64,000 nucleotides of DNA from Leptospira sp. (GTDB taxonomy: Bacteria > Spirochaetota > Leptospiria > Leptospirales > Leptospiraceae): positions 1-64,000 of the forward strand of contig JAWXAQ010000012.1 of the NCBI GenBank assembly GCA_034439575.1, given 5' to 3'. Below, in pieces: positions 22,766-58,363 of this stretch; position 1 is the first letter of the stretch; each line of letters begins with the position of its first letter. The notes beneath the pieces were generated by a model. The model had not been told where the DNA came from. It ran no database searches and saw nothing but the letters and a program-made list of their open reading frames with translations. Both the position numbers and the translations under genes were made by a program.

Positions 22766-24805
22766 ATGACGGATTTAAATTTCATTCTCGAGAAAGAGGC
22801 CAAGGACTCAAAAGCAAGGGCCGCCACATTTAGGACTTTGCATGGTGAAGTAAAAACTCCTATTTTTATGCCAGTGGGAACGCAGGCGACTGTGCGCACG
22901 TTAAATGTAGATACATTAAATCATGTTGGTTCAAATGTATTACTAGCAAACACTTATCACTTATTACTCAGACCAGGTGCTGAGGTATTTCGAAACATTG
23001 GTGGCATTCACAAATTTATGAATTGGGATAAACCAGTTCTCACTGATTCTGGTGGGTTCCAAATTTTTAGTTTGCCCAATGATAGGAAAATGACAGAGGA
23101 TGGTGCCGTTTTTCGAAGTTATGTGGATGGACAAAATGTAATGTTATCTCCAGAAATCAGCATTGAAATGCAAATGGCAATTGGTTCGGATATCATGATG
23201 GTTTTGGATGAATGTGTTCCTTCTACTGTCGATTTTCAGAGAGCAAAAGAAGCAATGGAGCGTACACACCGTTGGGCTCTTCGAAGTTTAAAAGCCCGCA
23301 AACAGAGCAAACAATCCTTATTTGGAATCGTACAGGGTGCATGTTTTCCTGAATTACGAAAAGAGAGTGCCAAAGTTTTGACAGAGATGTCCTTTGATGG
23401 TTATGCGATAGGTGGACTCGCTGTTGGTGAGACAAAGGATGAACGAAATGACTTTTGCGAATTGAGTGCATCTCTTTTGCCAAAAAACCTTCCTCGTTAT
23501 CTGATGGGTGTCGGAACTCCACTTGATTTACTCGAGGCTGTGCATCGCGGTGTTGATATGTTTGATTGTACAATTCCAGTTGAACTTGCACAGAGAGGTG
23601 TGGCGTTTACGAGTTTAGGAAAACTCCAAATTCATAGAGGTATTTATAAATTTTCTGATGCAAAACTGGATCCGAATTGTGACTGCAGATGTTGTCAAAA
23701 TTATTCTCGTAGTTATTTACATCACTTGATAAAAGCCAATGAAATCCTCGGTTGGCAATTGATAGCTGAACACAACCTAACATATTATCATACTCTAATG
23801 TCTGGAATGAGAATTGCCATATTGGAAGATAAATTTTTACATTTTTATCATGAAAAAAAGGAAGAAGTGAGTCAAAGTGATAATATAAATCCTCCTTTCA
23901 CAGTAAAGGCTCCCAAAAAAGACAAACGCCATAGCCTCGGTGATTATGAAATGATTGAAAGTAAAAATGGAAAGTACTTTAGCATCAAACAAAAGAGTTC
24001 CGGTGAAGTGATGCATTCGGTAAATTCACCAATCGAAGAAGCCAATGCACTTTATATTCTCCAATCAAAATTAGCAGAAAAACTTTCATCTCATTTCAAT
24101 GATATAAATTTATCTGAATCTCCGATTAATCCAACCAAACAAGAATTAGTTTTATGGGACGTTGGACTTGGAGCAGCGACAAATGCAATGGCAGCTGTCA
24201 TTTGTCACGAAACCCTTCTACAAAAAACAAAATTGATCATTGAAAGTTTTGAAAACGATTTAACTCCTCTAAAACTAGCATTTAATAATCATGGAAAATT
24301 TCCGCACCTATTCCATAAGGCTCCAAAACAAATCCTTCAAAATCAAAATTGGCTCGGCGATGATGGACTTTTGGAATGGAAATTATATCTCGGCGATTAT
24401 CAAGAGATGTATTCTTTAGCGAGAATTCCTGATATTATTTTTTATGATCCCTTTTCTTCTAAAACAAATTCTTATTTATGGTCGGTCGAATTTTTTTCTA
24501 AGCTTTATGCTTATTTAAGTAAATCTGAAAAACAAGTTTCGTTGTACACCTATTCTGCGGCAACTTCCATAAGAGCAGCTATGTTATACGCTGGATTTTT
24601 TGTAGGGAAAGGAGTAGCCACTGGACCAAAAAGTGAAACTACGATAGCTTATACTTTATATCCAGAAAAAAATATGGAAAGATCCTTACTCGATTTGAAT
24701 TGGCTTGAAAAATGGGGCAGAAGTGATTCAAAATATCCAGATTTGTTGTCTGTAAATAAAAATGAATGGGAGCAAAAAATTATTAATCACCCGCAGTTTA
24801 AATAA
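22766..24805 (+). CDS. tgt: tRNA-guanine transglycosylase fused to an MnmC-type SAM methyltransferase domain
   Basis: TPIFMPVGT, TDSGGFQ, GIVQG, YLMGVG, DMFDC, CxCxxC Zn site; C-terminal DVGLGAATN, YDPFS, YTYSAA..IR. Confidence 0.93.
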   Translation: MTDLNFILEKEAKDSKARAATFRTLHGEVKTPIFMPVGTQATVRTLNVDTLNHVGSNVLLANTYHLLLRPGAEVFRNIGGIHKFMNWDKPVLTDSGGFQIFSLPNDRKMTEDGAVFRSYVDGQNVMLSPEISIEMQMAIGSDIMMVLDECVPSTVDFQRAKEAMERTHRWALRSLKARKQSKQSLFGIVQGACFPELRKESAKVLTEMSFDGYAIGGLAVGETKDERNDFCELSASLLPKNLPRYLMGVGTPLDLLEAVHRGVDMFDCTIPVELAQRGVAFTSLGKLQIHRGIYKFSDAKLDPNCDCRCCQNYSRSYLHHLIKANEILGWQLIAEHNLTYYHTLMSGMRIAILEDKFLHFYHEKKEEVSQSDNINPPFTVKAPKKDKRHSLGDYEMIESKNGKYFSIKQKSSGEVMHSVNSPIEEANALYILQSKLAEKLSSHFNDINLSESPINPTKQELVLWDVGLGAATNAMAAVICHETLLQKTKLIIESFENDLTPLKLAFNNHGKFPHLFHKAPKQILQNQNWLGDDGLLEWKLYLGDYQEMYSLARIPDIIFYDPFSSKTNSYLWSVEFFSKLYAYLSKSEKQVSLYTYSAATSIRAAMLYAGFFVGKGVATGPKSETTIAYTLYPEKNMERSLLDLNWLEKWGRSDSKYPDLLSVNKNEWEQKIINHPQFK

Positions 24806-27113: not shown

Positions 27114-28820
27114 TCAATCTTTCATGGTATAAGTATCTTTTAGGGAAAGCACTCTATCTTTGTAAAAGGAATTGATCGCCGTTTCGTCGTAATGAGCTTT
27201 TTTGACGAGTAACAAACAGAGTTTTGATTTTTCCTCGGAAATTTTTTCCTTTCCCGATAATTCGGCGGCAAATTTTGAAAAATCCCGCACAAATACATGA
27301 AAGATCATATCCATGGTTTCATTGTCCGTTTTATCAAACTCTGCGTGCTCCAAAATCAATTGACCGTAAATAATCAGAGTCAATAATTCTCCGATTGATA
27401 ACATTAAATCGATATCTGTTTGGTCATCTTTTGTTAACTTTAGTTCGGTGATCAAATTTACGAAAAGTTTAATTTGTTGTTTAAAAATTTCCAAATTTGG
27501 AGTACTGAATTTGGAATATACTTCTTCATAATCTCCTAATGGAACATTGCGTATTGCTTTGGTAGTCGCACCTTGTTCAAATAAAAATTGGTCATTTTTT
27601 GGCTCTACCATATGTGGGATTTTCGGTGCCGGCTTTTTTTCGAATAGATAGGCATTTAAAAACTGAGTCACAAGCATCATATTGATATGAACGGTACCTT
27701 CCAGTTTTGGTAACATACGTATGTCTCTTGTTGCCATTTCAAAATACATATCTTTCTCAAACCCACGAGCCGCTATAACATCCCAAAGGTGGTTGATTAC
27801 TTCTTCGGCTTGCATGGTGACTTTCATTTTGACCATGGGATTGAAGAGTAGGTATCGTCGGTCTTCGTTTGATGCCGCTTTCATATAATCACATGCTCTA
27901 AATGCAAATGACTTCATGGCTATCAATCTTGCATAGGCATCAAGAAAGAGTCTTTTGATATGAGGAAAATTTGCCACTGATTCATTGAATAACTTTCTAT
28001 TCGCTGCATGGTTTAAGGCCTCATGAAAAGAATGACTTGCAATTCCAATGGAGGCCCAACCCAAATTATATTTTGCGTAAGCGACAGTGGCTAGAGCCGC
28101 ATCCCAAGCATCACGGTCCTTAGTTAAAATATCTTCCTCTGTGATAGGATAGTCGTCTAATTTAAATTCGGCGACATATTTTTGAGATTGAACTACATTT
28201 TGAATCAGTTTGTATTTTGGATGATTCGTTTTGACAGCAAAGAATACAAAGCGTCCGGTTTTTGAGTTTTTACCAAATACGGATATACGGCTAGCCACAT
28301 TTCCATTGCCAATATAGTATTTTGAACCTCTCGCAGTGTAGGTTCCATCATCATTTGGAATGAGCTGCATATCTGATGAAATTAAATCAGCGCCATGCTC
28401 TTTCTCAGAAAGACCAAATCCAAAAACTCCACCTGCCAATAAATCTGCTTTCGTTTCTAATTTAATTTTTTCATTTTTGGAATTCCAAATCGGACCAAGT
28501 CCCAATATGCTTACTTGCCAAACATACCAGTAGGAAAGTCCATAAAAACCCAATATCTCATTAAAATAACAATTTCTATAATTATCAAAGCGACTCCCCT
28601 CACCTCCGTAAGCTGGTGGTGCAAGAAGTTGACCAAATATGTTTTCTTTTTTTAAATGTGCTAAAAAATCTTCATACCACACAAAGGCGTGATCATCGGC
28701 TTTTAATTTCTTTTTACCTTTGTTTTCGAAAAATGATATTGTTGATTTCAAAATGTTTTGAGTGGATTTATCTAAATGAGAATAATCTACATTTTTTGGG
28801 TTTAGAATTTGCATAAACAA
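27114..28820 (-). CDS. Acyl-CoA dehydrogenase
   Basis: GFGLSEKEHGADL, GSKYYIGNG, RDIRMLPKLEGT. Confidence 0.93.
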   Translation of the reverse strand: MFMQILNPKNVDYSHLDKSTQNILKSTISFFENKGKKKLKADDHAFVWYEDFLAHLKKENIFGQLLAPPAYGGEGSRFDNYRNCYFNEILGFYGLSYWYVWQVSILGLGPIWNSKNEKIKLETKADLLAGGVFGFGLSEKEHGADLISSDMQLIPNDDGTYTARGSKYYIGNGNVASRISVFGKNSKTGRFVFFAVKTNHPKYKLIQNVVQSQKYVAEFKLDDYPITEEDILTKDRDAWDAALATVAYAKYNLGWASIGIASHSFHEALNHAANRKLFNESVANFPHIKRLFLDAYARLIAMKSFAFRACDYMKAASNEDRRYLLFNPMVKMKVTMQAEEVINHLWDVIAARGFEKDMYFEMATRDIRMLPKLEGTVHINMMLVTQFLNAYLFEKKPAPKIPHMVEPKNDQFLFEQGATTKAIRNVPLGDYEEVYSKFSTPNLEIFKQQIKLFVNLITELKLTKDDQTDIDLMLSIGELLTLIIYGQLILEHAEFDKTDNETMDMIFHVFVRDFSKFAAELSGKEKISEEKSKLCLLLVKKAHYDETAINSFYKDRVLSLKDTYTMKD

Positions 28821-32515: not shown

Positions 32516-33646
32516 TTAATAATTCACAGCTTGCGCTACTTCCTCTTCTTCAGCTTCAGAATCGGCAAATTTAGAAAGGTATGCTTTTAAGGTTGCGGAA
32601 AAATTTTCTGTAACATCTGTGAATTGAACACCGACTCGAAATTTGGATTCCATATTTTTTATATTTCGAATGATACCTTTCACAGGAATTTTGGCATCTG
32701 CGATATTCAAATCAAAAATTAAAGATTCTCCAATAGCAAAACTTTTGATGAAAAATATATTTTGAGAATTTAAAAAGCTGAGACCATTTTCACTTATGTC
32801 TACAATTTTACAAACTTCAGGTGCCTCTTCAAAAAAACCTGTTTTACAAATTTCATCAGCAACTCGATTTGCTATAGAATCCACCAAATCGAAAGTAGTC
32901 GAGTCCAATATCTTTTTATGGTTCACTTGGATATAGCCAATCGGAATGAATCCTTTGTATTTTAGCATAATTGAAATTTCAGATATATGGCTCTCGTGAA
33001 TCAATTTTGGAATTTGTACTTTTTTTGAAAATTCATCATACGGGAGGAAATCATGGTCGGGATTTACATTTTCATTCTTATCTGGAATAAAAATCGGTTT
33101 CAGATATTTATTAAGAAGCCGTAACCTTGCATCTTGTTTTGAAGTCAGGATGATTTGACAGGAATCAAATCTCTTTCGAAGGATCATTCTATACTTTTGA
33201 ATGATATCATCTATTTTTGAATTATCAAAACTCAATTGTTTTTGAATTTCATTGATGTTTACGATTTTTTCTAATGACAATGCCGAATATTTATCATCCA
33301 ATTTGATTCGAGATGTATCTTCTCTGTTCGCTTCGGAGATGTACAATTCGTAAGGTGTTAGTATTTCTATTTGTGCATGTTTTGTCGCAGCCGCGTTTAA
33401 ACGAAACTCTAGTTTCATCCCGTTATGTGTTAGATAGATAATTCTCTTCGATTCATATTCGGTTCCAATAGGCAATGAAGTAACCACACCAAAGTTATTA
33501 ATTGAAAGTGGTTTTATCTGTATCTTTGAGCCGCATGTATCAAGATACATGGGAACAGATCGATAAAGAATTTTAAGAATATCATACATTTGTACTTTGT
33601 TGTTTATGACCTTTTCCATAACCAACAGTATATTGAATGTATACAC
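32516..33646 (-). CDS. Leptospira DUF1577-like protein with C-terminal PilZ domain
   Basis: IPIGYIQV, C-terminal IVDISENGLSF...GIIRN...VGVQF. Confidence 0.78.
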   Translation of the reverse strand: MYTFNILLVMEKVINNKVQMYDILKILYRSVPMYLDTCGSKIQIKPLSINNFGVVTSLPIGTEYESKRIIYLTHNGMKLEFRLNAAATKHAQIEILTPYELYISEANREDTSRIKLDDKYSALSLEKIVNINEIQKQLSFDNSKIDDIIQKYRMILRKRFDSCQIILTSKQDARLRLLNKYLKPIFIPDKNENVNPDHDFLPYDEFSKKVQIPKLIHESHISEISIMLKYKGFIPIGYIQVNHKKILDSTTFDLVDSIANRVADEICKTGFFEEAPEVCKIVDISENGLSFLNSQNIFFIKSFAIGESLIFDLNIADAKIPVKGIIRNIKNMESKFRVGVQFTDVTENFSATLKAYLSKFADSEAEEEEVAQAVNY

Positions 33647-33920
33647 AAATGAAATCCCGAAGGGGATAAATATAGGCCATTTTTAACGAATTAGGCTAAA
33701 GCGAATCATCAATAGCCAAAAAAAAATATCTATGTAAAACAATTGGTCAACAAAGCGGAAATATTATAAATTTTTAATCTCGTACGGCTATTTCTTTGCA
33801 ATGGGTTCACTAATATTCTCCCCGGGATAGCGAAATTTGCTATTGTGTTATCTAATTAGTAAACAAGAAAGTTTAGGATTCATTACTTATAAACCTGAGT
33901 TTGAATTCTGACGTTGGTGG

Positions 33921-36820
33921 ATGCTGATGACAAAATTTATAAAAATACTATTCATTACTTCAATAATTGTCCTAAATAATTGTACGTATTGGCCAGTAGC
34001 AAATGGACTGATTTCTGATTTGCTAACAACTGCAGGTGGACAAAACAATTCAACATCTCTTATACTTGCTTCTCTTTTGAACCAAGGGGGTGGAGGTTCT
34101 CAACTAGATATAATTCTTTTTGATCCTGCACCAGCTAATATGATAGTAGGCGAATCTCAGACACTCAAAGTAAAAGCGCGAATAAATAATGGGGAAACCC
34201 ATGAGTAGCGAATGCAGGGGAAATACAATTTCTTTCCTCGGATTCTGCGATACTTTCTACTTCTGGAAATACTGTGACTGCTCTCTCAAATGGCAGTGCG
34301 AGTATCACGGCTAGTTATAAAGATAAACTGGTATCAGCAGGAATCACTGTCAGTGCCAATGATGGATCAACTGCTACTGCATCCACTTTACCAGCTGCAG
34401 TCCCACCTACACCAGATACCACTGCACCCACTGTCACATCTGCTTCAGCAATTTTACCAAATCGGGTGAGAGTAATCTTCTCTGAAGATGTAAATGCGAC
34501 AGGTGCAAGTCTTGTAGCAAGTTATAAAATTGTATTCCAAGCGGATGTTGCTGGTCTTTGTTCTACAAATGCTAATTTTGCTAGTACCTCTACCGTAGGC
34601 ACTTTAGGTTCTGCTTCTGCCACAGATTTGGGATTTAATATATCATCTGTAACAGCGATTGATGCAAGAACTTATGACCTAAATTTAAGCCACAATCAAT
34701 TCCCTGGCGCAAACTACACAGTGATCGTTGATAAAACTGCGATAGAAGATCTCGCGACCACACCGAATGCTCTCGGATGTTCTAATACAGGAAACTTTAC
34801 TGGCGATGAAGCAATCAAAGTTACTTCTGCGACTTGCATAGATACTACGAATTTTGTCCTTACATACTCCAAGCAGGTATTAGGCGGAGTCGGCACTACT
34901 GGATCTGGCGAATGTGATACGACTTCCACACCTTCATGTGCTGATCTTTATAAAATCCCAGCAGGCCTTGGTGCTGTGCAATCGGTGAGAAGATTAAATG
35001 GAACTGCTTGTGGCGGTTTAGCCGCAGACAATACAAAAGTCTGTATCAATCACAGTCTACCTCAATCAGGTTCTTCGTATACGGTGATGGTGGCTGATGC
35101 TACAAATGGCGATACATTTGATAATGGAACCATTAAGATTAACAGTAATTCCACTCCATCGACATCCATTATCCCCGCGAGTGATTCGGCAACATTCACA
35201 GGATGTGGCACAACGCCTGTAAATTTATCCGATGGAGCTCTCTTAGAAGATCCGTTTGGTGATGGATCTGATTATGGTGATCTTACAGCTTATCAATCAA
35301 ATATACTCATTGGACCAAATCGAAATGGAAACCGAGCTGCAAGATTTGCCATTGATGGGACTTCACTCACAAGTTTAACTTTCGCTCTTCAGAAAGATAC
35401 AAACTCAGGAAGTGGCTCTCGGTCACCCCAAAATACAATAAGTAGCTCACTAGCAGTCGGTGATCCATATACTTATTCATCTATTGGTGGTCCATTGTGC
35501 GTAAGCTCCCACACAGCTACCTGCGGACCAAACAACCAGGATGGAAGAGGGGTCTTTTATTCTGGAATGATCGGAGGCTTTGAAACCTTAATATTAACTG
35601 GCTCAAAATCATCAGATGGTACAGGATACCCGAAAAACGATTATATCTATTGGACAAGAGATACAGATACTCAGCTGGATTTTCAATACATCGATACAGG
35701 TGCTGTACTAAATTCACCGGCAGTGAATGGCTCTTCTGTTGGAGGGGCAACCGTTGCTATCGAGCACAATACAGGAAGTGAATCGGTGGCGTTTCATAAT
35801 GATCACCTGTATTTGTCTTACCCAACGACTGACCCAAAACGACCAACAATCCTTCGATTGCAAGATGTTACAGTACCTGAACCCCTACCATCTGCGATTA
35901 ACAGAGATTTGTCTCTCTTCTCTATGATAAACATTGGAATGATTGCTGACAATTCTTTCAGCAATATGAATCTGTATCAAATATTAGGTGGAACGGTGTA
36001 TTCCTTTAATAATCGGGTTTATGTTGCAAATACAGGAAAGATTCGTTACAATGCTGCATCTTGCAGCCTTGGGAATAGCTCAACTTATTCGGGAGGGACT
36101 TGTGAGCAAAGAGGGGGAGTTATACGTTCTACGGTAGTTAATCCGGCACCTTGCTCAGGATTCGGAGCATGTGCCGATTGGGTTAATATTTCTCCTTCAG
36201 CAACCCAATACGCTCGAAACTTTTCCAATCCTCTAACAAGAGTTTTAAATTTAAAGGCTGGTGATAGACCCATTCCAAGCTTTGAAACATACAATAGTAA
36301 ACTTTATATGCTCAGAAATGCATGTCGTACTGTGCCAATGGTCGGTGAATACTGGTGGGCACCTGCGACCTTTAACGAAGGTACTTGCCCAATTGGCAAT
36401 GAAAGACCTCAGTTATGGAAATGTAGCCCTGGTGGGGACTTAGAATGTGATGCGGCTGATTGGACTTTGGTGGCAGAAGATGGAGTTACTACAGGCGCAA
36501 CTAACTTTGGAGATACGAATAACCGAAGGATCACACTCTTAAAGACAAATGGTAGCCGCTTATATATTGGATTCGACAATCCAAATGGAATCCAAGTGTT
36601 TAGAACAAGGTCAGGAATTACAGATCCTGCAAGTGCCGCTGACTTTGAAGCCGTACCAGGCCCGACAGGGGCTGCAAGTTTCAATTCCCGATTTGTGCAA
36701 GAGATCTATTCCGCTGCGTCAAGGTTAGATGGAACGATTTACAATCTTTACATTTCTGTCGGTGGGAGAAATGGCGGAACTCCAGTTCCTGTAAAGGTTT
36801 ACAGACAAATCAATAACTAG
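33921..36820 (+). pseudogene. LigB/LigC-like Ig-domain lipoprotein split by a 1-nt frameshift at about 34203-34205 (pseudogene or sequencing error)
   Basis: ORF 33921..34208 has lipobox LNNC-TYWP and the first half of a Big_2 domain. The -1 frame is open from 34205 (VANAGEIQFLSSDSAILSTSGNTVTALSNGSASITASY), completes the domain, and continues into a LigB-like C-terminal region (DTTAPTV..RVIFSE, DPFGDG, CGPNNQDGRGVF, PQLWKC..ECDAADW). Confidence 0.82.
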
Positions 36821-36842: not shown

Positions 36843-36882
36843 TACCTTATGATTCTTAAAAAAATCATAAGGTATTTTTTTT
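36843..36882 (+). terminator. Rho-independent terminator after the lig-like gene
   Basis: 12-bp stem TACCTTATGATT/AATCATAAGGTA followed by T8. Confidence 0.85.
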
Positions 36883-36991
36883 ATTTCATACGGTCAAAAA
36901 AAACCGTTCAGAACTTAGTTTGTTCCGCTTGGGCTTGCGCAATTTTTCATTTTTTGATTAAATTAAATAATGTTCCGCTAGGGATAGTAAA

Positions 36992-37357
36992 ATGAACAAT
37001 CAGACACTTTCGTTATTTATAATTTTGTTATTGGTTTCCTGCCAACATGCCCGTGTGCGTTTGGAGATGAAACCACCTAATGAATGTATAAGCAATGAAT
37101 TTTCTGAATCTGATTGTATGTTTGCCAAGGCAAATCTTCTGAACAAAGTCAGAGAAGGTGGGACTCTCTCTCATAAATTTAAACAAGATTATTATTTTTG
37201 GGGTTTTTATCCAAGAAATATGGAACTAGATCTTTCTGAAGTTTGTCCAGCTGGCATTTACGAACTGCATAGATTTGCAACATTTAGTGATACTCTATTT
37301 GAACAATTAACAATTGGAATTTATTCTCCAAGGACTATTAAATTATTATGTTATTAA
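36992..37357 (+). CDS. Bor/Iss-like lipoprotein
   Basis: Lipobox LVSC; YYFWGF...VCPAG...LTIGIYSPRTI..C is the Bor-family pattern. Confidence 0.8.
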   Translation: MNNQTLSLFIILLLVSCQHARVRLEMKPPNECISNEFSESDCMFAKANLLNKVREGGTLSHKFKQDYYFWGFYPRNMELDLSEVCPAGIYELHRFATFSDTLFEQLTIGIYSPRTIKLLCY

Positions 37358-37659
37358 AATATAAAATTTCATCAACTTTCTTTATTTTTATAATCATATT
37401 TGCTATGAATTGCCATACTGTTACACTGAAAATGGGCGATTTACCAGAAAATTCGGAACCAATCAATCCAGTTTCTTTACAACATTATACAACGATTATG
37501 GGATGGAAAGAAATCAGCCAAACTAAAAGTATCGATTGTCCTAAACAGGATGGAAATATTGTCATTCAAGAAGATGTGTGGGATGGAATCATATATTTCT
37601 TTTTAGCTCCGTTTTTAATTTCCGAATCGATTGAGATATCATGTTCGGAGGTAAAATGA
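37348..37659 (+). CDS. Small Bor-like lipoprotein
   Basis: Lipobox AMNC; C...C spacing and layout parallel the preceding gene; overlapping start/stop. Confidence 0.65.
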   Translation: MLLKYKISSTFFIFIIIFAMNCHTVTLKMGDLPENSEPINPVSLQHYTTIMGWKEISQTKSIDCPKQDGNIVIQEDVWDGIIYFFLAPFLISESIEISCSEVK

Positions 37660-39164
37660 ATTTTTTCGCACCTCCTCCATCTACAAAAGTTTTTAGCTCC
37701 GTTCGGTTTAAAATAGCTATCGCTTATTCAATATTAGCAATAGTAAATATATCTATTTTTTCGAATTTGATTTTTGAAAATCAGGTAGATTTGATTATTA
37801 ATAATTTCAAATTGCATTACGACAACTTTGCATCTGTGGTTTCTAAAAGTTTAACTGATGGAGAAGTAAACTTTGAATCGGAGGAAGGCAAAAAAACATT
37901 TAAAGAAACTCTCTTTGTGAACGGCATCACAAAATTTTTAGTTTTCGATGATTCAAAAACAATTGTATTTAAGGAAGATGAATCTGAAGAATTAAAACAA
38001 ATTGAATCTTACATTCAATTTTTATTTCCAAAGTCTGATTCTATTGATACAGGTCGCTATCGAATCGAATTGGATGTAAAGACATACCAAGTAAAGATCG
38101 GATTCTTTATGAAAAATTTAGAATCGAAAAAATTTTATATTTATACAGAAGAGACAGTTCGAATCGTCCAAGACAGACTTCGTCAACTCTACATTCAAAT
38201 TGGCGTGGTGATCGTTTTAGGTATATTGTTTCATGCATTTTTTGCCATCTATCTCTATCGCTTGATTTTTTCACGTCTGACGATTTTAAAAGAAGTTAGC
38301 ATTGCGATGAAAGCAGGCAAATTGGATAAAAGAGCAGAATGGAATTTTAAAAGCCGCGATGAATTAGATGATTTGGGTTTATCTTTCAATTCCATGGCAT
38401 CCACTTTGCAGACAAAAATAACAGAGATTTCTGAATTAAATCATGAAATCCAGATTGAACTAGAAATTGGGAAGGAGGTACAAGGTTTTTTCCTACCCAA
38501 TCATGAAATTTTTAAAAAGAACGATATTGCCGTACAATTTGTACCAATGCGCGAAGTTAGTGGTGACGTATATAATTTTTATAAATTTAAAGATGGGTCT
38601 CGTGGTTTGTTTTTTGCAGATGCCATGGGACATGGTGTTCCTGCGGCTCTAGTAACAACTGTAATCAATTTAGGTTTGCACATCATTCTCAAAAAAACAA
38701 ACAAACCAAATGAAGTCATGACCCACTTAAATAGTTATGTGAGCTATCATTTGAAAGGTTCTTACTTTGCCTCAGGTATTTTTATCCTTTTCCCAGCCAA
38801 TGAAAATATAATCTATTATTCTAATGCAGCTCAAAACGACCCACTTATTTTCAAAAGAGATAATCCTGAACCAACTAACTTAGAATCAATGGGATTGAAT
38901 CTTGGTATGATATCTCCATTTGAGTATCCATTGGCACAAACAAAATTTGAACCAGGTGATAAGTTGGTGGTGTATAGTGACGGAGTTACAGAAGGCCGAA
39001 ACGCAGAGAAAGTTCAGTTTGGAAATCCTAAGTTAAATGAAATTGTAACTTCTAATTTTGACCGTTCAAATCAAGAAATTTCAGAAATTATCTTGAAAGA
39101 GTTAACTGAATTCACTGACGGTAAGTTTGATGACGATGTAACCATACTTGTGTTAGGTAAATAG
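37656..39164 (+). CDS. Membrane HAMP + SpoIIE (PP2C/RsbU-type) phosphatase
   Basis: GGAGGT RBS before ATG 37656; 2 TM, DELDDLG..FNSM HAMP, VSGD, ADAMGHGVPAA, YSDGVTE, DDVT. Confidence 0.92.
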   Translation: MNFFAPPPSTKVFSSVRFKIAIAYSILAIVNISIFSNLIFENQVDLIINNFKLHYDNFASVVSKSLTDGEVNFESEEGKKTFKETLFVNGITKFLVFDDSKTIVFKEDESEELKQIESYIQFLFPKSDSIDTGRYRIELDVKTYQVKIGFFMKNLESKKFYIYTEETVRIVQDRLRQLYIQIGVVIVLGILFHAFFAIYLYRLIFSRLTILKEVSIAMKAGKLDKRAEWNFKSRDELDDLGLSFNSMASTLQTKITEISELNHEIQIELEIGKEVQGFFLPNHEIFKKNDIAVQFVPMREVSGDVYNFYKFKDGSRGLFFADAMGHGVPAALVTTVINLGLHIILKKTNKPNEVMTHLNSYVSYHLKGSYFASGIFILFPANENIIYYSNAAQNDPLIFKRDNPEPTNLESMGLNLGMISPFEYPLAQTKFEPGDKLVVYSDGVTEGRNAEKVQFGNPKLNEIVTSNFDRSNQEISEIILKELTEFTDGKFDDDVTILVLGK

Positions 39165-39166
39165 CA

Positions 39167-41020
39167 TTGCGATTTTTCACATATTCAGTTTTATTCATAT
39201 TTTGTCTAATTTATTTGTTATTTGGATCGGGCTGTATTCTGAATGCAAGAATGTTCGATTTAGATATGCAATTGAAAAAAAGTCAATTATTGAATTATGA
39301 ATTTTCTTCGGAAATTTTAAAGTTAAAATTTCAAGAAACAATTCTCCAAAAAGAGGATCTTGGTTCTGAAGTAAACCAGCTTATCATGGAATCTAATGTG
39401 ATGAACCAATCAATTGGTCACTTACATAATAAATTTACTTGGAGAGAAAAAGCAGGAGAATACTTAATCAATACAATACACTATCTAGTATTTAAACCAT
39501 TAATTTACTTAGCTTCAGAGAATGATTATCTATTCGATTTGCAAAAAGCATTTTACTTAGAAAAAAATCAAAAATGTAATTTAGCCATTCCCATATATAG
39601 AAATTTAGAAATAAATCTAAGAAAATCAAGAGGTGATGACCACGCTTTTGTGCAATTGCATTTAGGGTATTGTGAAGCGATATTAGGTAACAATGAAAAT
39701 GCGATTAAAAATCTCTCTTCTTTAATTAGTGAATATACTGGATCGCATTTTGCCGATAGTGGTCAAGTTATGTTAAATATTATACTATCAAATCTTAAAA
39801 AAGAAGAAAAGTTTAATAAGAATAGTTTAAGCGATAGCGAACTTGGCAAAAAATATTATGATAACGCTTTATTTGCCAAGGCGATTTTACAATTTAACAA
39901 ACTTGAAAAATTAACTTTAGATGAAAAATATATGAAAGCTCGTTCTTTTGAAAGAGTAGGGCGAATCACAGAAGCTAGTAATTTATATTTGGATATTGTT
40001 GCTGAAGGTGATTCGGAAATTGCCAAAAAGGCAAATCGCCGTTTGATGTTAATCGGAAATTTTTATGATGGCGGAGAAGAAGTTAAAGATATCGCCAAAA
40101 AAAATGCTGAAAAATTAGGAGATACTGTTATCTCCGAATTTGTCGAATCATCCGTTTCTAAACAAACAACTTCTCTCGTTTTAGAGACTTTAAAAAAGGA
40201 AGAAAAATTAGATACAAATCAATATTCTTTCCACCAAGAAAAAGTTATAGTGAGTGATGAACAAATAAAAAAAGTTAATACAGGCTTAGATCAAAAAAGA
40301 CAAACTAACGAAAAGATGGCTACCACTGAACCACCGATTCTGAAAAACAATTCGCCGAAGAAACAGTTGGCGGAAGAAAAAAATGTTAAGAAGAGCACAA
40401 ATAACGAATGTTTGCAATTCAGATCCCATGAAGGGGGTATTCATAAAGCTGAAAAAGTTTTGGTACTAGATGGTAAATTTGTCACTACGTACCTTGGAAA
40501 GACATTGGCCACTCCTGTTTCCGATTTTGAATTACTAGAATCTTGTAAAATTAATTCACCATTTACTATAGCTACTGATAAACTAGGAAAAGTTTCTGTT
40601 AAAACCGCAACTATTAAAGATGATCAAATGTTCTTAGAAACAGATGCTGGTATTAAAATCATTAATGTCGCTGATGTGCAATCCATGATTCCAGATAGTA
40701 TTCTAGAAAAAATTCGTTTTATTGTAGTACGCAGAAAAGATGGAAATTTTCATTATTGCAATAACATAGAATTTATTGGAAACAAAGAAGTACGCCTAAA
40801 TTCAAGATCAGGGGTTTCCGTTACAAAAAATGTTTTAGATTTGGATTATGTTCAGTTAGGTGATAATTCCATCAATTTTGTTATCATTAAAAAAGATAAA
40901 ACATTAGCAAAATCTATCGCCAATTTGTATATTAAAGATAATTTGATCAATTTCAATAATGATTTAGGTGATTTACAAATAATTAGCTTAGAAGACGTTC
41001 AAAAAATTGAATCAGAATAA
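39167..41020 (+). CDS. TPR-containing exported/lipoprotein with C-terminal tandem beta repeats
   Basis: Signal ending GSGC; TPR-like helices (LHLGYCEAILG, ARSFERVG); four repeats of about 45-50 aa at the C-terminus. Confidence 0.78.
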   Translation: MRFFTYSVLFIFCLIYLLFGSGCILNARMFDLDMQLKKSQLLNYEFSSEILKLKFQETILQKEDLGSEVNQLIMESNVMNQSIGHLHNKFTWREKAGEYLINTIHYLVFKPLIYLASENDYLFDLQKAFYLEKNQKCNLAIPIYRNLEINLRKSRGDDHAFVQLHLGYCEAILGNNENAIKNLSSLISEYTGSHFADSGQVMLNIILSNLKKEEKFNKNSLSDSELGKKYYDNALFAKAILQFNKLEKLTLDEKYMKARSFERVGRITEASNLYLDIVAEGDSEIAKKANRRLMLIGNFYDGGEEVKDIAKKNAEKLGDTVISEFVESSVSKQTTSLVLETLKKEEKLDTNQYSFHQEKVIVSDEQIKKVNTGLDQKRQTNEKMATTEPPILKNNSPKKQLAEEKNVKKSTNNECLQFRSHEGGIHKAEKVLVLDGKFVTTYLGKTLATPVSDFELLESCKINSPFTIATDKLGKVSVKTATIKDDQMFLETDAGIKIINVADVQSMIPDSILEKIRFIVVRRKDGNFHYCNNIEFIGNKEVRLNSRSGVSVTKNVLDLDYVQLGDNSINFVIIKKDKTLAKSIANLYIKDNLINFNNDLGDLQIISLEDVQKIESE

Positions 41021-47547: not shown

Positions 47548-48573
47548 TTATACGGCAACCTTTGAAGATTTGTTTTGTCTCATTTTTAATAAATAACTTG
47601 GGTTAATTCCAAATTTCTTTTTGAATGCAATAGAAAATTTACTTAATGAACTGTATCCTATCGAAGTAGCAGCCTCTGTTACATTTAAGCCTTCGTTTAA
47701 AATCATATTATATGTTAAATCTAAACGATAATTGCTTAGATAACCGTAGATCGTATCTTTATAGATTTCTTTGAAGCCTGCCTTTAATTTAGAAGTGTTC
47801 AGAGAGACTTTTTTTGCTAATTCAGAAATGTTAGGTGGATTTTCAAGATCAGCGATCAGTAGTTCTCTTGCACGAAAGATCCTGTTTATATCGATATTAG
47901 AATATCTAATCTTATTTTTTACATTGATGTTATAATTTTTTGTAATAAATAGTATTCGGAATAGGGCATCGTAGGTACGAAATAGAAAATATTCTTTTTG
48001 TTTATCATTAGAAAGCGGGATAGAACTTGAGAAAATTTCCACCAAGCTATTGCCAATATTTTGGAAGTATTCGCTTAAGAAAATCAGACCTTCCTTTCTA
48101 GATTCAGGATTCATACTAATATTTGAAAGTGCAGTATCTAAAAATTCTTGAGTAAAATGAGATTTTAAAAAAGACATATTAACGTTTATCAATATGACTT
48201 TGATTTCTTTTTCAGAGGAAAGATTCGCAGGAAAATTTTCACATTGAATTCCATCTGTAGACAATTTCATTTTTCTTTCTTCGCTAATATCCAATTGAAG
48301 AGGAATCAGAAACAAATAAGGATAATTTATATCTTCTCGTTCTAATTGAATTGTGGATTGTGATTTGATCTTTATATATGAAACTTCAATTCCTTCAGCT
48401 AAATGAATGGTTTTTAGAGTGAGACTCTCACCTTCAGCTACGGATTTTATTTTTTTAATCATCCCTGGAATTTTATCTTGAGTCTCCTCACTGTTTACCC
48501 AATTACTATATTGGCAAATTTTCTTAATATAATTTTCATCCTCTATATGGATCAGCTCGTTTGGAAATATCAT
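47548..48573 (-). CDS. Cytoplasmic AraC regulator, PchR/YbtA-like C-terminus
   Basis: ARELLIADLENPPNISELAKKV..N..KLK.GFK, NVTEAA..IGYSSLSKFS.AFKKKFG..P; GAGGAGG RBS. Confidence 0.9.
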   Translation of the reverse strand: MIFPNELIHIEDENYIKKICQYSNWVNSEETQDKIPGMIKKIKSVAEGESLTLKTIHLAEGIEVSYIKIKSQSTIQLEREDINYPYLFLIPLQLDISEERKMKLSTDGIQCENFPANLSSEKEIKVILINVNMSFLKSHFTQEFLDTALSNISMNPESRKEGLIFLSEYFQNIGNSLVEIFSSSIPLSNDKQKEYFLFRTYDALFRILFITKNYNINVKNKIRYSNIDINRIFRARELLIADLENPPNISELAKKVSLNTSKLKAGFKEIYKDTIYGYLSNYRLDLTYNMILNEGLNVTEAATSIGYSSLSKFSIAFKKKFGINPSYLLKMRQNKSSKVAV

Positions 48574-48753: not shown

Positions 48754-49866
48754 TTATTTTTTAGAAAACTTTTTTCTAAATATGTTAGGTGACATTTTCC
48801 ATTTTTTTCTAAATGCAGAATAGAATGTTGATTGAGAACTAAAGCCCACTTCAAGTGCAATGCTTAGAACAGTTCTTTGAGGTTCGTTAAGAAGAATCTT
48901 TTCTGATTCAATGATTCTATAATGATTTATAAAATCATAAAAATTTGTTTTTAATATTTCATTCAAATACTGAGATAATTTATGTCCACCGATTCCAAGC
49001 ATTTCCGCTAATTTATCCATACTGATATCGTGATCTTCGTATATTTTATCTTCATCTAGAAGGCGATTTAGTTTTTCTTGAATCTTCTGAAGGTTTACAT
49101 TTTTTAGATTTGAATTTTCATATTTTATTTTCTGAAATTCTTTTTGAACTCGTTTGGCACTTTGCGGGAATTTACGAACTATGATATGTAGATAGATCAA
49201 TAAAAATGAAATCATTACTGAAATCAATTTATGAGATAATACTAAATATTCATGGTTCAAAAATATTGTCGTAATTAATCCTACACTTAAAGTAACAATA
49301 CATGTAGTTAGTATGATAAAAATATGAAAGGTAACTTCTTCTCTTTTGAATGATTTTAAATTCACAATCGGTCTTAATTTGATAATGAAGTGAAGTAAAT
49401 AAATAATGGTTTGGATGAAGACTACATAGCGTATCAAACTGATTAAGAAAGAATAACCAAACTCTAATTTTCCTTCGTCGATATTCTCTATAATAATTTT
49501 TTTTTCTTCATCCGAAAGAAATGAATAAGGAATGATGATAATAAGAGCAAGAATTGCAGGGATGAAAGGTAAAAAATACCTTTTGCTGATATTTGTATTG
49601 GTTCTTATAATAATTTGTAAGTAAATATAAAGCAAAGGGCCAATTGTACAGGCAAACGGCAAATCTATGCTATGTAAAAATAAATAATTACCTTCAATCC
49701 CTAAGAACCAAATATAATAAGAAAATTGAACTAATCCTACCGCAAAGAAGAGAACCCCTGTGGCCAACTTTTCCCAAAAACTATGCGAGTCCAATATTGC
49801 CCCGAGTAATCCAAGGAGGCTTGTGACCATTCCGGCAAAGATGATTAATAAAAAAGGGTCAAACAT
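48754..49866 (-). CDS. Membrane-anchored AraC regulator (paralog 1)
   Basis: About 7 TM, KYENSNL, LSQYLNE, VLSIALEVGFSSQSTFY. Confidence 0.92.
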   Translation of the reverse strand: MFDPFLLIIFAGMVTSLLGLLGAILDSHSFWEKLATGVLFFAVGLVQFSYYIWFLGIEGNYLFLHSIDLPFACTIGPLLYIYLQIIIRTNTNISKRYFLPFIPAILALIIIIPYSFLSDEEKKIIIENIDEGKLEFGYSFLISLIRYVVFIQTIIYLLHFIIKLRPIVNLKSFKREEVTFHIFIILTTCIVTLSVGLITTIFLNHEYLVLSHKLISVMISFLLIYLHIIVRKFPQSAKRVQKEFQKIKYENSNLKNVNLQKIQEKLNRLLDEDKIYEDHDISMDKLAEMLGIGGHKLSQYLNEILKTNFYDFINHYRIIESEKILLNEPQRTVLSIALEVGFSSQSTFYSAFRKKWKMSPNIFRKKFSKK

Positions 49867-50104: not shown

Positions 50105-51256
50105 TCATTCACTAAGTCTAGTTTTTGGAACCTTGGGACTCAAGTTCGCCTGTCCATAAATTTTTCTGTAGGCGTTAGGTGACATTTTCCATTTTTTACC
50201 AAAAGCTGAGTAAAAGGTAGATTGAGAACTGAATCCAACTTCAAGGGCAATACTTAGTACGGTCCTATCTGAGCTATTTAACAATAATGATTCTGATTCA
50301 AGCAAACGATGATGATTGATCAAATCATAAAAATTTGTTTTCATAATTTCATTGAGATATTGTGATAATTTATGAGAACCGATTTCGAGTTGTTCTGCAA
50401 GTTTATCTAAACTAAGTTCATTATCTCTATATATTTTTTCGACATCCAAAAGATAATTTAATTTGATTCGAATTTTATCGAGGTCTACATTTCGAAGGTT
50501 TGAATTTTCATATTTTACTTTTTGGTATTCATCATGAATTTTTGATGCACTTTGAGGAAACTTTCGAACTAACAGGTGTAAATACAAAAGTAATGCTGTA
50601 ATCATTAATGACATGATTTGATGGGCAAAACGAAGTCTCTCAAACTCAAAAAATACTTGAGCTACTAGTCCCAACAATACTATTCCGATTGTCGCTAATA
50701 TAATGATAAATATATGCAATGTTAGTCTTTCTCTTATAAAAGACTTAAGGCTGACTAAGATACTTGTTTTATAAATGAAATATATAAGATAAAGCGTAGT
50801 CTGAATAAAGATGACCATCCTGATCACTAAAATAAGGAAAGCATATCCAAAACTTTGAACCCCATAATTCAATTCTTGTAATATGATTCGTTTATCATTA
50901 TCTGGAATCATCGCAAAAGGTAGGATGATAAATAAGGATAGAATTGCAGGAATAAAAGGTAGGTAAAATTTCGAATAGGAAGAAGTTTTATTTTCTATAA
51001 TTCTGTTTAAATACAAAAATAACAAAGGCCCTATGCAACAAGCAAATGGCAAATCTATACTACTAAAAAAAAGGTAGTTTTCTTCAAGGCCTGAATACCA
51101 TAAAAAATATGAAATTTGTTTCATTCCTATCGAAAAGAATAATAGGAAAGTTCCAGCCTTTTCGAAAAAAGAAATTTTGTCGATGAGTGTGCTAATTGCA
51201 CTTAAGAAACTAATGATTACTCCACTCAAAATAATTAACAAAAAAGGATCATTCAT
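50105..51256 (-). CDS. Membrane-anchored AraC regulator (paralog 2)
   Basis: Same architecture as paralog 1 with long identical peptides (SIDLPFAC, VRKFPQSA, RTVLSIALEVGFSSQSTFYSAF). Confidence 0.92.
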   Translation of the reverse strand: MNDPFLLIILSGVIISFLSAISTLIDKISFFEKAGTFLLFFSIGMKQISYFLWYSGLEENYLFFSSIDLPFACCIGPLLFLYLNRIIENKTSSYSKFYLPFIPAILSLFIILPFAMIPDNDKRIILQELNYGVQSFGYAFLILVIRMVIFIQTTLYLIYFIYKTSILVSLKSFIRERLTLHIFIIILATIGIVLLGLVAQVFFEFERLRFAHQIMSLMITALLLYLHLLVRKFPQSASKIHDEYQKVKYENSNLRNVDLDKIRIKLNYLLDVEKIYRDNELSLDKLAEQLEIGSHKLSQYLNEIMKTNFYDLINHHRLLESESLLLNSSDRTVLSIALEVGFSSQSTFYSAFGKKWKMSPNAYRKIYGQANLSPKVPKTRLSE

Positions 51257-53297: not shown

Positions 53298-54437
53298 ATG
53301 ATGTATTTTTCTTTGTTTATTTTTTCAGGTGCCATCGCGAGTTTTACTACTTCTTTGGGGAGCTTATTTAGAGAATCTTCTAAGTTTTTGAAGTATTCGT
53401 CTTCCTTTTTATTTTTATCTATCGGTCTTTACCTGCTAGCAGTTGCTATATGGCTATCACCCATTCGAGATGAATTTATTTCAAGTCAATACTTTCATTT
53501 TCCTTGTGCTTCTACGATTGGCCCTCTACTTTATCTTTATTTACAAACTATTCTTAATGAAAAATGGAAATTCAAAAGAAGACACTTACTTTTGTTTATT
53601 CCCTCTATTGTATTTGTCGCAGAACTAATTCCTTTTTACCTACTTCCGACGGAAGAAAAATTTAGAATTCGTGATGCGATAGACCAAGGAAATACTTTAT
53701 CTGGATTTGCTTATTACTTGAAACTTTCTAGATCATTTATATTTATTCAAAATTTAATTAGTATATTATATTTTTGTTTTCAAACGAGAATTCTTTTTAA
53801 TTTTAAGACATTAAAAAGCCAAAATATTTTAATTCATTTTTATATTTTAACTAGATTCACAATTCTTTCTATTTTCATTTCCCTATTTTTTGAATTATTT
53901 TATCATTTTGATAGTTATCGAGTTTCCGTTATTTCCCTTGGTAGCACGATCACATTGATCGTGTATTATTTACATGTTTTGATCATAAAATTTCCAAATG
54001 GAAATCGCGAATTAACACAAGTTTACTCTAAAATAAAATATGAAAGTTCGAATTTACGAAATCTTGATTCAAAATTATTAATTCTAAAATTAGAAAATTT
54101 AATGTCAGAAGAAAAATTATATAGAGATGAAAATTTAACCATGATAGCGATTGCAGAAAAATTGAATATCAATAAACATCAGTTATCTGAATTATTAAAT
54201 GCTTCGATTGGTGTTAATTTTTATGATTATATAAATAAATATCGAGTCATCGAAGCAAAAAAAATATTAGAAGACTCACCAGAACAAATCATTTTAAGAG
54301 TTGCCTTTGATGTAGGATTTAAATCGCAGTCAACTTTTTATACAGCTTTTAAGAAAGTATTTAAAATGACACCTGCTGATTATAAAAATAATTTTCACAA
54401 ACACAACATTAAACCTTCTAAAATTTCATTAAAGTAG
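53298..54437 (+). CDS. Membrane-anchored AraC regulator (paralog 3)
   Basis: IGPLLYLYL, KYESSNL, HQLSELLN, VAFDVGFKSQSTFY. Confidence 0.92.
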   Translation: MMYFSLFIFSGAIASFTTSLGSLFRESSKFLKYSSSFLFLSIGLYLLAVAIWLSPIRDEFISSQYFHFPCASTIGPLLYLYLQTILNEKWKFKRRHLLLFIPSIVFVAELIPFYLLPTEEKFRIRDAIDQGNTLSGFAYYLKLSRSFIFIQNLISILYFCFQTRILFNFKTLKSQNILIHFYILTRFTILSIFISLFFELFYHFDSYRVSVISLGSTITLIVYYLHVLIIKFPNGNRELTQVYSKIKYESSNLRNLDSKLLILKLENLMSEEKLYRDENLTMIAIAEKLNINKHQLSELLNASIGVNFYDYINKYRVIEAKKILEDSPEQIILRVAFDVGFKSQSTFYTAFKKVFKMTPADYKNNFHKHNIKPSKISLK

Positions 54438-57310: not shown

Positions 57311-58363
57311 ATGGTTTGGATATTATTTACTTCTGCATTTTCTATTCTTTTGAGCATCGGAGAGCTGGTTGGATCCTACCGTAATCGTAATCGTTTGTTA
57401 TCTGCTGGAATTTATTTTTGTCTAAGTGCAATTATCTTCTATGTTTGGTGTTTTCTCGAGGGACTACTGTTTACGTATCCCTTTTTTTGTTTTTTTCATA
57501 TCGTATGTTTGATGTTAATGGCGATTTTTTTTTCCAAATGGAGTGATCTGCTTTTAGGAATAGAAAGAACATTTTCTTTGAAAAGAATTCATTTGTATAT
57601 TTTTGTTCTGATGGGATTTTTGCCAGCGCTTTCTATTCCAAATGAAATTAAATTAAAAATACTCTATGCGAGTGAATGGGATACTTATGGAATATTACAA
57701 AGAATTATTTTTGCAATTGGTTTATTCCCGATCTGTTTTTTTTCGATTATAACAAATTTTAAATTTTTTAAAAAATATACCATTTTAGAAATACATAAAA
57801 ATCCAAAAATTCATCATTCAATATTTATCATCATCATAACAAATGTTGTTTGTTGCTTAGGTCTTTTTAATTTCATATTTCCTGGTAAAAAAAGTTTTGT
57901 TCCCTTGACAGTTGCAGTGACATTCATCGTACCCTTGCTTTTTTTTATGGAAAAAATAATTCCTCATTTATTTGTTAAGGATCAAAAATTAGATCCATTA
58001 AAACGGTATTCTAATTCTAAGTTACATTCGTTAAATATAAAAGATTTAGAAGAACAGATAACGAAAGTAATGATATTAGAAAAATTCTTTCTTCATTCAA
58101 ATCTTTCTTTAGGTTTATTTGCAAAAAGAATACATATTTCAACACATCAACTTTCAGAATTTATTAATATCAAATATAATACAAATTTTTCTGGCTTTAT
58201 CAATCGATTCCGCATTATAGAAGCACAAAAAATTCTGAAAAATAATCCAGAATATAACATACTAAGAATTGCATATGATGTCGGATTTGAAAGTAAATCT
58301 ACATTCAATGAAACTTTTTTGAAAATGACTGGAATGACCCCTTCCCAATTCCGCAAAACATAA
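57311..58363 (+). CDS. Membrane-anchored AraC regulator (paralog 4)
   Basis: Multi-TM, RYSNSKL, HQLSEFIN, IAYDVGFESKSTFN. Confidence 0.9.
   Translation: MVWILFTSAFSILLSIGELVGSYRNRNRLLSAGIYFCLSAIIFYVWCFLEGLLFTYPFFCFFHIVCLMLMAIFFSKWSDLLLGIERTFSLKRIHLYIFVLMGFLPALSIPNEIKLKILYASEWDTYGILQRIIFAIGLFPICFFSIITNFKFFKKYTILEIHKNPKIHHSIFIIIITNVVCCLGLFNFIFPGKKSFVPLTVAVTFIVPLLFFMEKIIPHLFVKDQKLDPLKRYSNSKLHSLNIKDLEEQITKVMILEKFFLHSNLSLGLFAKRIHISTHQLSEFINIKYNTNFSGFINRFRIIEAQKILKNNPEYNILRIAYDVGFESKSTFNETFLKMTGMTPSQFRKT

Follow-up and report, generated by a model that had tools for sequence, protein, structure and literature searches.

A short, putatively lipid-anchored Lig-subfamily protein with a predicted β-propeller, encoded in a plasmid-like block of a saprophyte-type Leptospira genome

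By definition, LigB and LigC of Leptospira combine a lipobox with 12 tandem Big_2 domains and a C-terminal domain of another, non-Big kind, and LigA has 13 such Big_2 domains (PMC4758666, Table S10B). The six saprophyte genomes in the same table are without lig genes. Section 6 of PMC7821625 presents clades S1 and S2 as lacking lig and dates the arrival of an ancestral lig gene, by inference, to the time after the P and S clades had split; in PMC7821625, the LIPAD peptide of the LigB extension is also stated to bind fibronectin. In L. interrogans, LigB (LIC10464), LIC10463, LIC10462 (‘Bor domain’) and LIC10461 have consecutive locus tags and are all listed as raised by PerRA/PerRB (PMC8638967, Table 1). 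Here we analyze a gene at positions 33921–36820 of a 64,000-nucleotide stretch of Leptospira sp. DNA (contig JAWXAQ010000012.1; hereafter the window, meaning the whole stretch). Its product is very probably a short lipoprotein of the Lig family that combines immunoglobulin (Ig)-like domains with a C-terminal β-propeller, and it is best filed as a member of a short, separate Lig subfamily, not as an ancestor of LigB/LigC.

In the window, the coding sequence is divided between two open reading frames (ORFs). ORF1 (33921–34208, 95 amino acids (aa)) stops partway through an Ig-like domain, and the second frame, open from 34205 to 36820 (871 codons from stop to stop), continues this domain in a different frame after an overlap of 4 bases. 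An extra letter behind 34205 is present in the contigs of all four public runs (X1, X2, X6, and X11) from four studies, comprising two microbial-mat metagenomes, one groundwater metagenome, and one lake-water metagenome in whose contigs the sequence occurs. X1 and X2, which are near-identical along the entire stretch, may be the very source of the window, and contigs can drop rare variants, so that a broken minority allele is conceivable. Apart from the letter at 34205, the contigs aligned over 33600–34800 are free of insertions and deletions. A protein search retrieved P0006, an intact 964-aa protein that is identical to both ORF halves except at the junction and has three member sequences on three contigs in the public collection; its source entry marks it as the window’s own. 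Since the frames join and P0006 is on record, ORF1 and the second frame are one intact gene for a 964-aa protein, in agreement with an earlier note on this DNA, which had joined the two ORFs into a lipoprotein of about 965 aa. The frame break is a fault or rare variant of the window’s assembly.

Most of the 964-aa protein aligns with the C-terminal part of a LigB-type protein. The reference used here, P0021 (1910 aa; source name ‘Ig-like domain-containing protein [Leptospira mayottensis]’), matches the solved structures of LigB12 (2mqg and 2mog), LigB-like 2mh4, and LigA (8gyr). In BLASTP, residues 116–963 of P0006 align with residues 1074–1909 of P0021 over 848 residues (32% identity, E 2e-120), and this part of P0021 consists of the last Big_2 repeat and the entire C-terminal extension; the full-length match to the LigB/LigC C-terminal region expected in the earlier note is thus significant. 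A HMMER search with residues 160–964, in which longer proteins were sought, found P0021 at 1.5e-103 with 99% coverage, and the first match in a protein atlas was the ‘Immunoglobulin-like B protein family’ (score 0.91). The match between the N-termini (P0006 1–131 and P0021 1–122), covering the signal, CxxWP, and the first Big_2 domain, is weak (E 0.006). Most of the motifs that the earlier note had named as LigB-like line up with P0021, namely CxxWP, DPFGDGS, CGPxNxDGRGVF, RPQLWKC, and CDxxDW. The exception is DTxAPTV, which reads NKAVPTV in P0021 and DTTPPTV in P0019.

The order of parts in the protein is listed in Table 1. The N-terminus has the predicted signal and the lipobox LNNC, followed by TYWP, and the lipobox Cys is kept in all six short forms that have an N-terminus and aligns with CMVWP of P0021; a cleavable signal and lipidation at Cys19 may be expected from the sequence. 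Ahead of the linker with the PAAVPPTP stretch, which was also found where it had been described (residues ~155–163 of P0006), the AlphaFold2 (AF2) model contains only one β-sandwich. A profile of short-form residues 55–146 matches 11 stretches of the Big_2 array of P0021 (best independent E-value 9e-9 in a database of 160 proteins), while Pfam Big_2 (PF02368) recognizes none of the seven short-form proteins even at E ≤ 10. The first domain therefore appears to be a divergent relative of the Big_2 kind; the earlier count of one domain stands, and its assignment to Big_2 itself stands at the level of the profile but not of Pfam.

Behind this linker begins a module of 801 residues (164–964). Ig-like domain 2, with a disordered loop at 220–234 in the AF2 model, is the start of the module common with LigB/LigC’s C-terminal extension, and Ig-like domain 3 contains the conserved residues Cys304, Cys330, Cys338, Cys362, Cys373, and Cys427. 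The remaining C-terminal part is predicted to fold as a seven-bladed β-propeller. The AF2 model of the whole protein, based on a 40-sequence alignment, has a mean predicted local distance difference test score (pLDDT) of 82.8 and a predicted TM score (pTM) of 0.76, and the propeller modeled alone with 81 sequences has a pLDDT of 90.5 and a pTM of 0.93. When the propeller model was compared with 48,161 solved chains by VIA-align, 694 chains reached Z ≥ 8. The best was virginiamycin B lyase (2z2n_A; Z 23.7, root-mean-square deviation (rmsd) 2.8, 289/293 aligned), followed by a flat plateau at Z 20–22 of WD40 proteins, lectins, integrin alpha heads, YncE, and Lp49; the structure search with the whole model gave a similar list of seven-bladed propellers, up to Z 22. 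Since no family rises above this plateau, the models define the fold without pointing to a ligand. The propeller core takes up about 290 of the 537 residues, the remainder being insertions, and invariant residues of the propeller include R797, C833, C841, W846, and Y880. As to the description of the C-terminal region as Cys-rich, the module has 18 Cys among its 801 residues (2.25%), all of which are invariant in the seven short forms. Most of the 18 are also conserved in the 40-protein alignment, with C833 and C841 present in 40/40. Searches of the Protein Data Bank (PDB) by sequence, with the single protein and with a profile, gave no match. A weak Pfam match to the SBBP β-propeller repeat in one short form (E 0.0075) was not used.

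The module is much more widespread than the short form. At E ≤ 1e-3, an exhaustive HMMER search of 1.84 billion representatives gave 364 proteins, of which 269 reached E ≤ 1e-10 and 80 reached E ≤ 1e-30. Among the fetched proteins, 166 match the module profile, 73 with the whole module and 77 with the propeller only. In 67 of the 73 full-module proteins, the end of the module lies within 10 residues of the C-terminus, and it is preceded by N-terminal extensions of 0–2575 aa (median 565) with Big_2, Calx-beta, and other repeats. These comparisons of sequences indicate that the C-terminal module is constant and the stalk is free to vary, and they support the idea, raised in the earlier note, of the C-terminal region as the functional core. 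Six of the 73 (P0008, P0015–P0017, P0024, and P0028) have a hydrophobic tail of 51–59 aa after the ...RQQN end of the propeller. This tail, which may be a C-terminal membrane anchor or a sorting signal, is found neither in the Leptospira Lig proteins nor in the short forms.

Trees of the module were built with FastTree on 102 rows and with IQ-TREE on 45 rows chosen from those 102; both are unrooted. The rows are modules of 650–1000 residues that cover the ends of the profile, after L015, L009, P0001, and L007 had been removed because they are duplicates or fragments. A clade with 100% support unites the seven short forms. This clade nests in an 18-row clade (99%; Shimodaira–Hasegawa (SH)-like support and SH approximate likelihood-ratio test (SH-aLRT)) together with long multi-repeat proteins of other Leptospiraceae genera. 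The proteins of genome groups g21, g22, and g13, with P0021 among the g21 rows, belong to a different 18-row clade (99%), and the 1329-aa proteins of the S1-type genus to a third, distant one. Forcing the short forms and the Lig group, a grouping named after the tree had been seen, into an exclusive clade cost 101 log-likelihood units (p value of the approximately unbiased test (p-AU) 0.0002). The trees thus place the short forms in a separate subfamily that is neither the sister nor a stump of LigB/LigC. The possibly ‘ancestral’ Lig architecture of the earlier note is not supported by this placement in unrooted trees, by the wide spread of the module behind highly variable N-terminal arrays, or by the gene’s position in a block colinear with an L. 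milleri plasmid.

Short N-termini also occur at several unrelated places of the tree (P0026/L013, P0029, P0038/P0041, and P0042). P0026 and locus L013, from a Leptospirales metagenome-assembled genome (MAG), have a signal, one clear Big_2 domain, and the module, whereas P0029, P0038, P0041, and P0042 have other short N-termini. When genome contigs were scanned with a profile of the short-form alignment, the only locus found was in the Leptospirales MAG. This locus (L013 3731–6655, with the same ORFs and scores in L018) is an independent single-Big_2 short form of ~971 aa with 38–43% identity. It contains one in-frame TGA where the window protein and P0021 have Arg, so it is a pseudogene or includes a sequencing error. 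A 965-aa frame of G051 (L017), which had resembled another short form, was discarded as one; it runs up to the end of its contig, clusters with P0008 (1413 aa), and is probably a fragment.

The distribution among genomes was surveyed at E ≤ 1e-10. In the S1-type genus (genus code g1), 4 of 41 genomes have the module, including the window’s genome (G000); in three of the 40 others there is a match, either a short form (only G010) or a frame of ~1329 aa. The module is common in g21 (19/22 genomes, frames of ~1900–1980 aa), g22 (22/24, frames of ~1930–1970 and ~2500 aa), and g13 (4/5, frames of 1300–1350 aa). From the genome counts and the place of P0021 in the tree, we infer that g21, g22, and g13 correspond to P1, P2, and S2. 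The sparse occurrence in the S1-type genus is compatible with the lack of lig in the six saprophytes of Table S10B, but it does not fit the idea of a module that is missing throughout. Its presence in the S1-type genus, in g13, and beyond Leptospira sensu stricto weakens the view of an acquisition by pathogens only. The g13 proteins of 1300–1350 aa (L040 in G045; P0009 and P0010) are located inside the g21/g22 Lig-type clade, with a Bor gene downstream; should g13 be S2, which is a guess from five genomes, S2 would carry a true Lig with a short stalk. The 1329-aa protein at L004, L005/L012, and L010 (G018, G019, and the G010 chromosome) represents a second Lig-like lineage in saprophytes.

The neighborhood of the gene provides a second, independent line for the Lig kinship. 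Downstream lie genes for a Bor-domain small lipoprotein and for a second small lipoprotein that resembles the LIC_10461 family; the NCBIfam NF047524 score of the latter (37.9 bits) is under the cut-off of 60, and its copy on the G010 plasmid is 56% identical. In 25 of the 41 loci searched by tblastn, a Bor homologue closely follows the Lig-type ORF, including 11/11 loci of g21, 7/7 of g22, 1/1 of g13, the short-form locus of G010, and one locus of another family. It is also present at two of the three S1 loci with the 1329-aa protein, the third being too short to tell. No Bor homologue was detected by tblastn within the available flanks of nine loci of g11, g15, g17, g20, and g23. Judged from these matches, the gene keeps its Lig-locus neighbors, the Bor-domain and LIC_10461-like lipoprotein genes. 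A complex prediction for the module (164–964) and the mature Bor-like lipoprotein returned 0.00 in two runs without controls and thus gives no verdict on binding.

The next gene, for a HAMP and SpoIIE-type phosphatase, has 72% identity to its G010 plasmid copy versus ~36–40% for paralogues elsewhere. The PilZ gene on the other side has its best match outside G000 on contig C3 of G010 (54%), and PilZ paralogues on the G010 chromosome and in all 39 other g1 genomes are only ~30–34% identical. Directly after the SpoIIE gene is a 617-aa ORF (39167–41020) that has no Pfam or NCBIfam match and is ~66–70% conserved on the G010 plasmid.

Table 1. Features of the short Lig-type gene and of its immediate neighbors in the window.
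Feature	Position	Strand	Basis
PilZ-domain protein gene, left end of the plasmid-shared block	32516..33646	-	Pfam PilZ, E 3.7e-9
Putative signal peptide and lipobox, residues 1–19, L-N-N-C then TYWP	33927..33983	+	Sequence; Cys19 at 33981–33983
Low-confidence linker, residues 20–59	33984..34103	+	AF2 pLDDT 35–53, two short helices
Single divergent Big_2-like Ig domain (predicted), residues 60–143	34104..34354	+	AF2 β-sandwich, pLDDT 77–91; split by the frame break
Frame break	34205..34206	+	Window one base shorter than every public contig aligned there
Pro/Thr/Ala-rich linker, residues 144–163	34355..34414	+	Sequence; AF2 pLDDT <50 at 148–161
Ig-like domain 2 (predicted), residues 164–292, begins DTTAPTV	34415..34801	+	AF2 strands, pLDDT mostly 77–94; aligned to P0021 from 1127
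Ig-like domain 3 (predicted), residues 299–427	34820..35206	+	AF2 pLDDT 85–97; Cys conservation; aligned to P0021
Seven-bladed β-propeller with long insertions (predicted), residues 428–964	35207..36817	+	AF2; stop codon 36818–36820
Terminator-like hairpin, 12-pair stem then T run	36843..36884	+	Consensus scan only; 6 sites versus 2.6 ± 1.6 in shuffles
Bor-domain small lipoprotein gene	36992..37357	+	Pfam PF06291, 44.7 bits versus cut-off 25
LIC_10461-domain-like small lipoprotein gene, overlaps its neighbors	37348..37659	+	NCBIfam NF047524 E 1.8e-9; NF047453 E 1.3e-6
HAMP and SpoIIE-type phosphatase gene, overlaps the small lipoprotein gene	37641..39164	+	Pfam

G000 is a 4.11-Mb genome in 37 contigs with 35.7% G+C. 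It shares its GTDB genus code (g1) with G010, in which a 964-codon frame is 68–71% identical to the window gene. This G010 ORF is 100% identical to AB3N58_17500, a ‘hypothetical protein’ on a plasmid of Leptospira sp. WS60.C2, and WS60.C2 is given as L. milleri of subclade S1 with a plasmid of 113,167 nucleotides (PMC11706286). The host is therefore likely to be an S1-type saprophytic Leptospira, in line with the non-pathogen lineage that the earlier note had surmised from the housekeeping genes.

Around the gene, ~21 kb of the window (32.5–53.1 kb; 32516–53150) is colinear with 14.6–23.0 kb and 34.0–45.3 kb of the G010 plasmid. According to Pfam, this block encodes PilZ, HAMP-SpoIIE, a 7TMR-DISM hybrid kinase with GGDEF, PAS-GGDEF-EAL, GNAT, a methyl-accepting chemotaxis protein (MCP), and AraC-type regulators. 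Its G+C content (28–32%) is lower than that of the left part of the window, where ileS, murJ, and tgt are located at 14–25 kb, and the block looks like plasmid-derived accessory DNA beside housekeeping genes. Two genes outside it, 27114–28820 (567 aa) and 58481–59719 (412 aa), have no match at E ≤ 1e-30 in the five complete g1 genomes, so the variable region exceeds the plasmid-colinear block; its ends were not found, and the window has no tRNA gene. The Lig-type gene itself has 42% G+C versus 34% for the window. A foreign origin on the ground of this high G+C was considered and rejected: the G+C content at third codon positions (GC3) is 29.7%, like that of the neighbors (27.8–28.6%), and the gene has thus not been acquired recently from a donor of different base composition. 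Its G+C excess comes from the amino-acid make-up, with Thr, Ser, Gly, and Ala at 8.6–10.6% each.

Elsewhere in the window, five AraC-type (HTH_18) paralogues of 340–382 aa stand in a row (47548–48573, 48754–49866, 50105–51256, 53298–54437, and 57311–58363), and two or three of them have counterparts on the G010 plasmid. The tgt gene (22766–24805) encodes 679 aa with a full Tgt domain at 11–369 followed by a below-threshold MnmC2 match at 413–628 (55.7 bits versus a cut-off of 136). Its product may be a fusion of two tRNA-modification enzymes.

We propose that the protein would be lipid-anchored in the outer membrane. Its three Ig-like domains, preceded by a flexible tether and with a Pro/Thr-rich hinge behind the first of them, would serve as a short stalk that holds out the disulfide-stabilized propeller, and the propeller would be a ligand-binding head for a polysaccharide or protein of the biofilm matrix or of other environmental surfaces. 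In pathogens, the same head would sit behind a stalk of twelve Big_2 domains, where most of the known sites for host binding are located. A link to biofilms is suggested by the cyclic di-GMP (c-di-GMP) genes of the block and by the mat, groundwater, and lake sources of the sequence. We consider the explanation as a whole likely, that is, an intact gene of a short Lig subfamily with this architecture, in an S1-type host, within the plasmid-like block, and acting through surface binding. For the surface-binding role taken separately, the chances seem about even. A broader reading has four parts: the extension and the Bor lipoprotein would be an old environmental adhesion or matrix device of the Leptospirales that predates pathogenicity; pathogens would only have lengthened the Big_2 stalk, which then gained host-binding sites; the short form would be the natural minimal version; and it would move among saprophytes on plasmids with c-di-GMP genes and serve biofilm life. 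This is a speculative and rather doubtful possibility, but if true, a harmless saprophyte could reveal what the LigB/LigC propeller binds.

Several observations weigh against the explanation that we prefer. The position of LIPAD reads LKAGD in the short form, and Pfam and NCBIfam assign no family to the two halves or the intact protein. The structural matches of the propeller form a plateau (Z 20–24) with at most 11% identity, and such a predicted fold gives nothing specific on the ligand. The host is placed by a genus code in common with a single named S1 strain. RNA runs X18–X20 contain small shares of the gene’s words. P0065, a public 93-aa record, is identical to the shortened ORF1, and in view of this record, a strain with a truly broken copy may exist.

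The last point, together with the break in the window itself, is what a true pseudogene would leave, in which a frameshift after residue 93 yields a lipoprotein stub of 93–95 aa and the rest is untranslated. On the other hand, the extra letter is in the contigs of all four runs from four studies, two of which are near-identical along the entire stretch; the downstream frame runs through its 871 codons without a further stop; the intact form is recorded with its three members on three contigs; and the short forms align well, with 52–78% identity to the G010 ORF and 53–74% to P0006. A pseudogene is thus quite improbable. A different history, the recent transfer of LigB/LigC from a pathogenic Leptospira followed by deletion of eleven Big_2 repeats, could explain why the signal and the CxxWP start coincide, why the first domain comes closest to Big_2 repeats one and two of LigB-type proteins, and why the C-terminal module and the downstream Bor gene are shared. 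The identity to LigB-type modules is only 32–40%, however, and the short forms fall into a different clade with 99% SH-like and SH-aLRT support. The rejection of an exclusive clade with the Lig group (p-AU 0.0002) and a GC3 that matches the host’s speak against such a transfer as well, and we regard it as extremely improbable.

Concerning the role, the propeller might act enzymatically, whether as polysaccharide lyase, glycosidase, or Vgb-type lyase, which would make the protein a tethered degradative enzyme displayed on the surface. Foldseek lists the PL24 ulvan lyase LOR107 (TM 0.45 by target), a PL42 rhamnose-glucuronate lyase, and β-propeller glycoside hydrolases, virginiamycin B lyase is the best VIA match (Z 23.7), and R734, R797, R893, N702, and N866 are invariant or nearly invariant polar residues. 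Nevertheless, WD40 scaffolds, lectins, integrins, and sensor domains come within 2–3 Z units of the best match, the identities do not exceed 11% in the propeller search and 15% in the whole-model search, and the only function reported for the LigB extension in PMC7821625 is binding, which makes an enzyme unlikely. The lipoprotein might also face the periplasm and take part in envelope signaling alongside its small neighbors, the Bor-like and the LIC_10461-like lipoprotein, and the SpoIIE/HAMP phosphatase, without being an adhesin. The genes for the small lipoproteins and for the phosphatase overlap, the block is rich in signaling genes throughout, and propellers are also known as periplasmic sensor domains (BT4663, Z 20.5). 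However, a terminator-like hairpin, albeit only a consensus match, stands between the gene and the Bor gene, the homologue LigB is treated as surface-exposed in PMC7821625, and the Bor pairing recurs at many loci while the phosphatase neighbor was looked at only here. We judge this arrangement to be about as unlikely as the enzyme, and retain surface binding as the working model.

In the literature searched, which covered few subscription journals, we found neither the short form nor a propeller of the LigB extension described. A natural 964-aa protein of a non-pathogen that consists almost entirely of the Lig extension is convenient for structural work, ligand screens, and genetics. The module is not confined to pathogens, and the Lig-Bor neighborhood, which is conserved, offers a second testable lead.

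Compared with LigB/LigC, the short form has the same lipobox Cys followed by xxWP, a first domain of Big_2 type, and a C-terminal extension that is homologous over its full length to the ~770-aa one of LigB/LigC, with conserved Cys and Trp landmarks in common, and a Bor-domain lipoprotein gene follows downstream in both cases. It differs in having one Big_2-like domain instead of 12 and 964 aa instead of ~1900, in its separate clade, in the absence of the LIPAD motif, and in its probable S1-type saprophyte host, where the gene is located in a plasmid-like block. The nearest module relatives outside the short forms are the long Leptospiraceae proteins (P0014, 3341 aa; P0024/L016, 1813 aa; and P0025, 1224 aa), which have 41–46% identity and belong to the same 18-row clade. 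Unlike the short forms, they carry long N-terminal arrays (Big_2, Calx-beta, and others), and some have the C-terminal hydrophobic tail. The S1 1329-aa Big_2 proteins (G018, G019, and the G010 chromosome; P0067) come from the same genus and have the same kind of module, but they show 32–39% identity, are placed in the third, distant clade, and contain several Big_2 repeats that Pfam recognizes. In overall form, the leptospiral antigen Lp49 (PDB 3bws) is similar in that an Ig-like domain precedes a seven-bladed β-propeller, and the model (344–964) superposes on its chain (124–454) with Z 21.2 and an rmsd of 3.2 over 298 aligned residues. Lp49 is nevertheless much smaller, shares 9% identity, and is without the long insertions and the cysteine pattern, and the PDB search by sequence misses it. 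The neighboring gene corresponds to the Bor/Iss family (PF06291) as a small lipoprotein with a Bor domain, which in Leptospira is fixed beside Lig-type genes.

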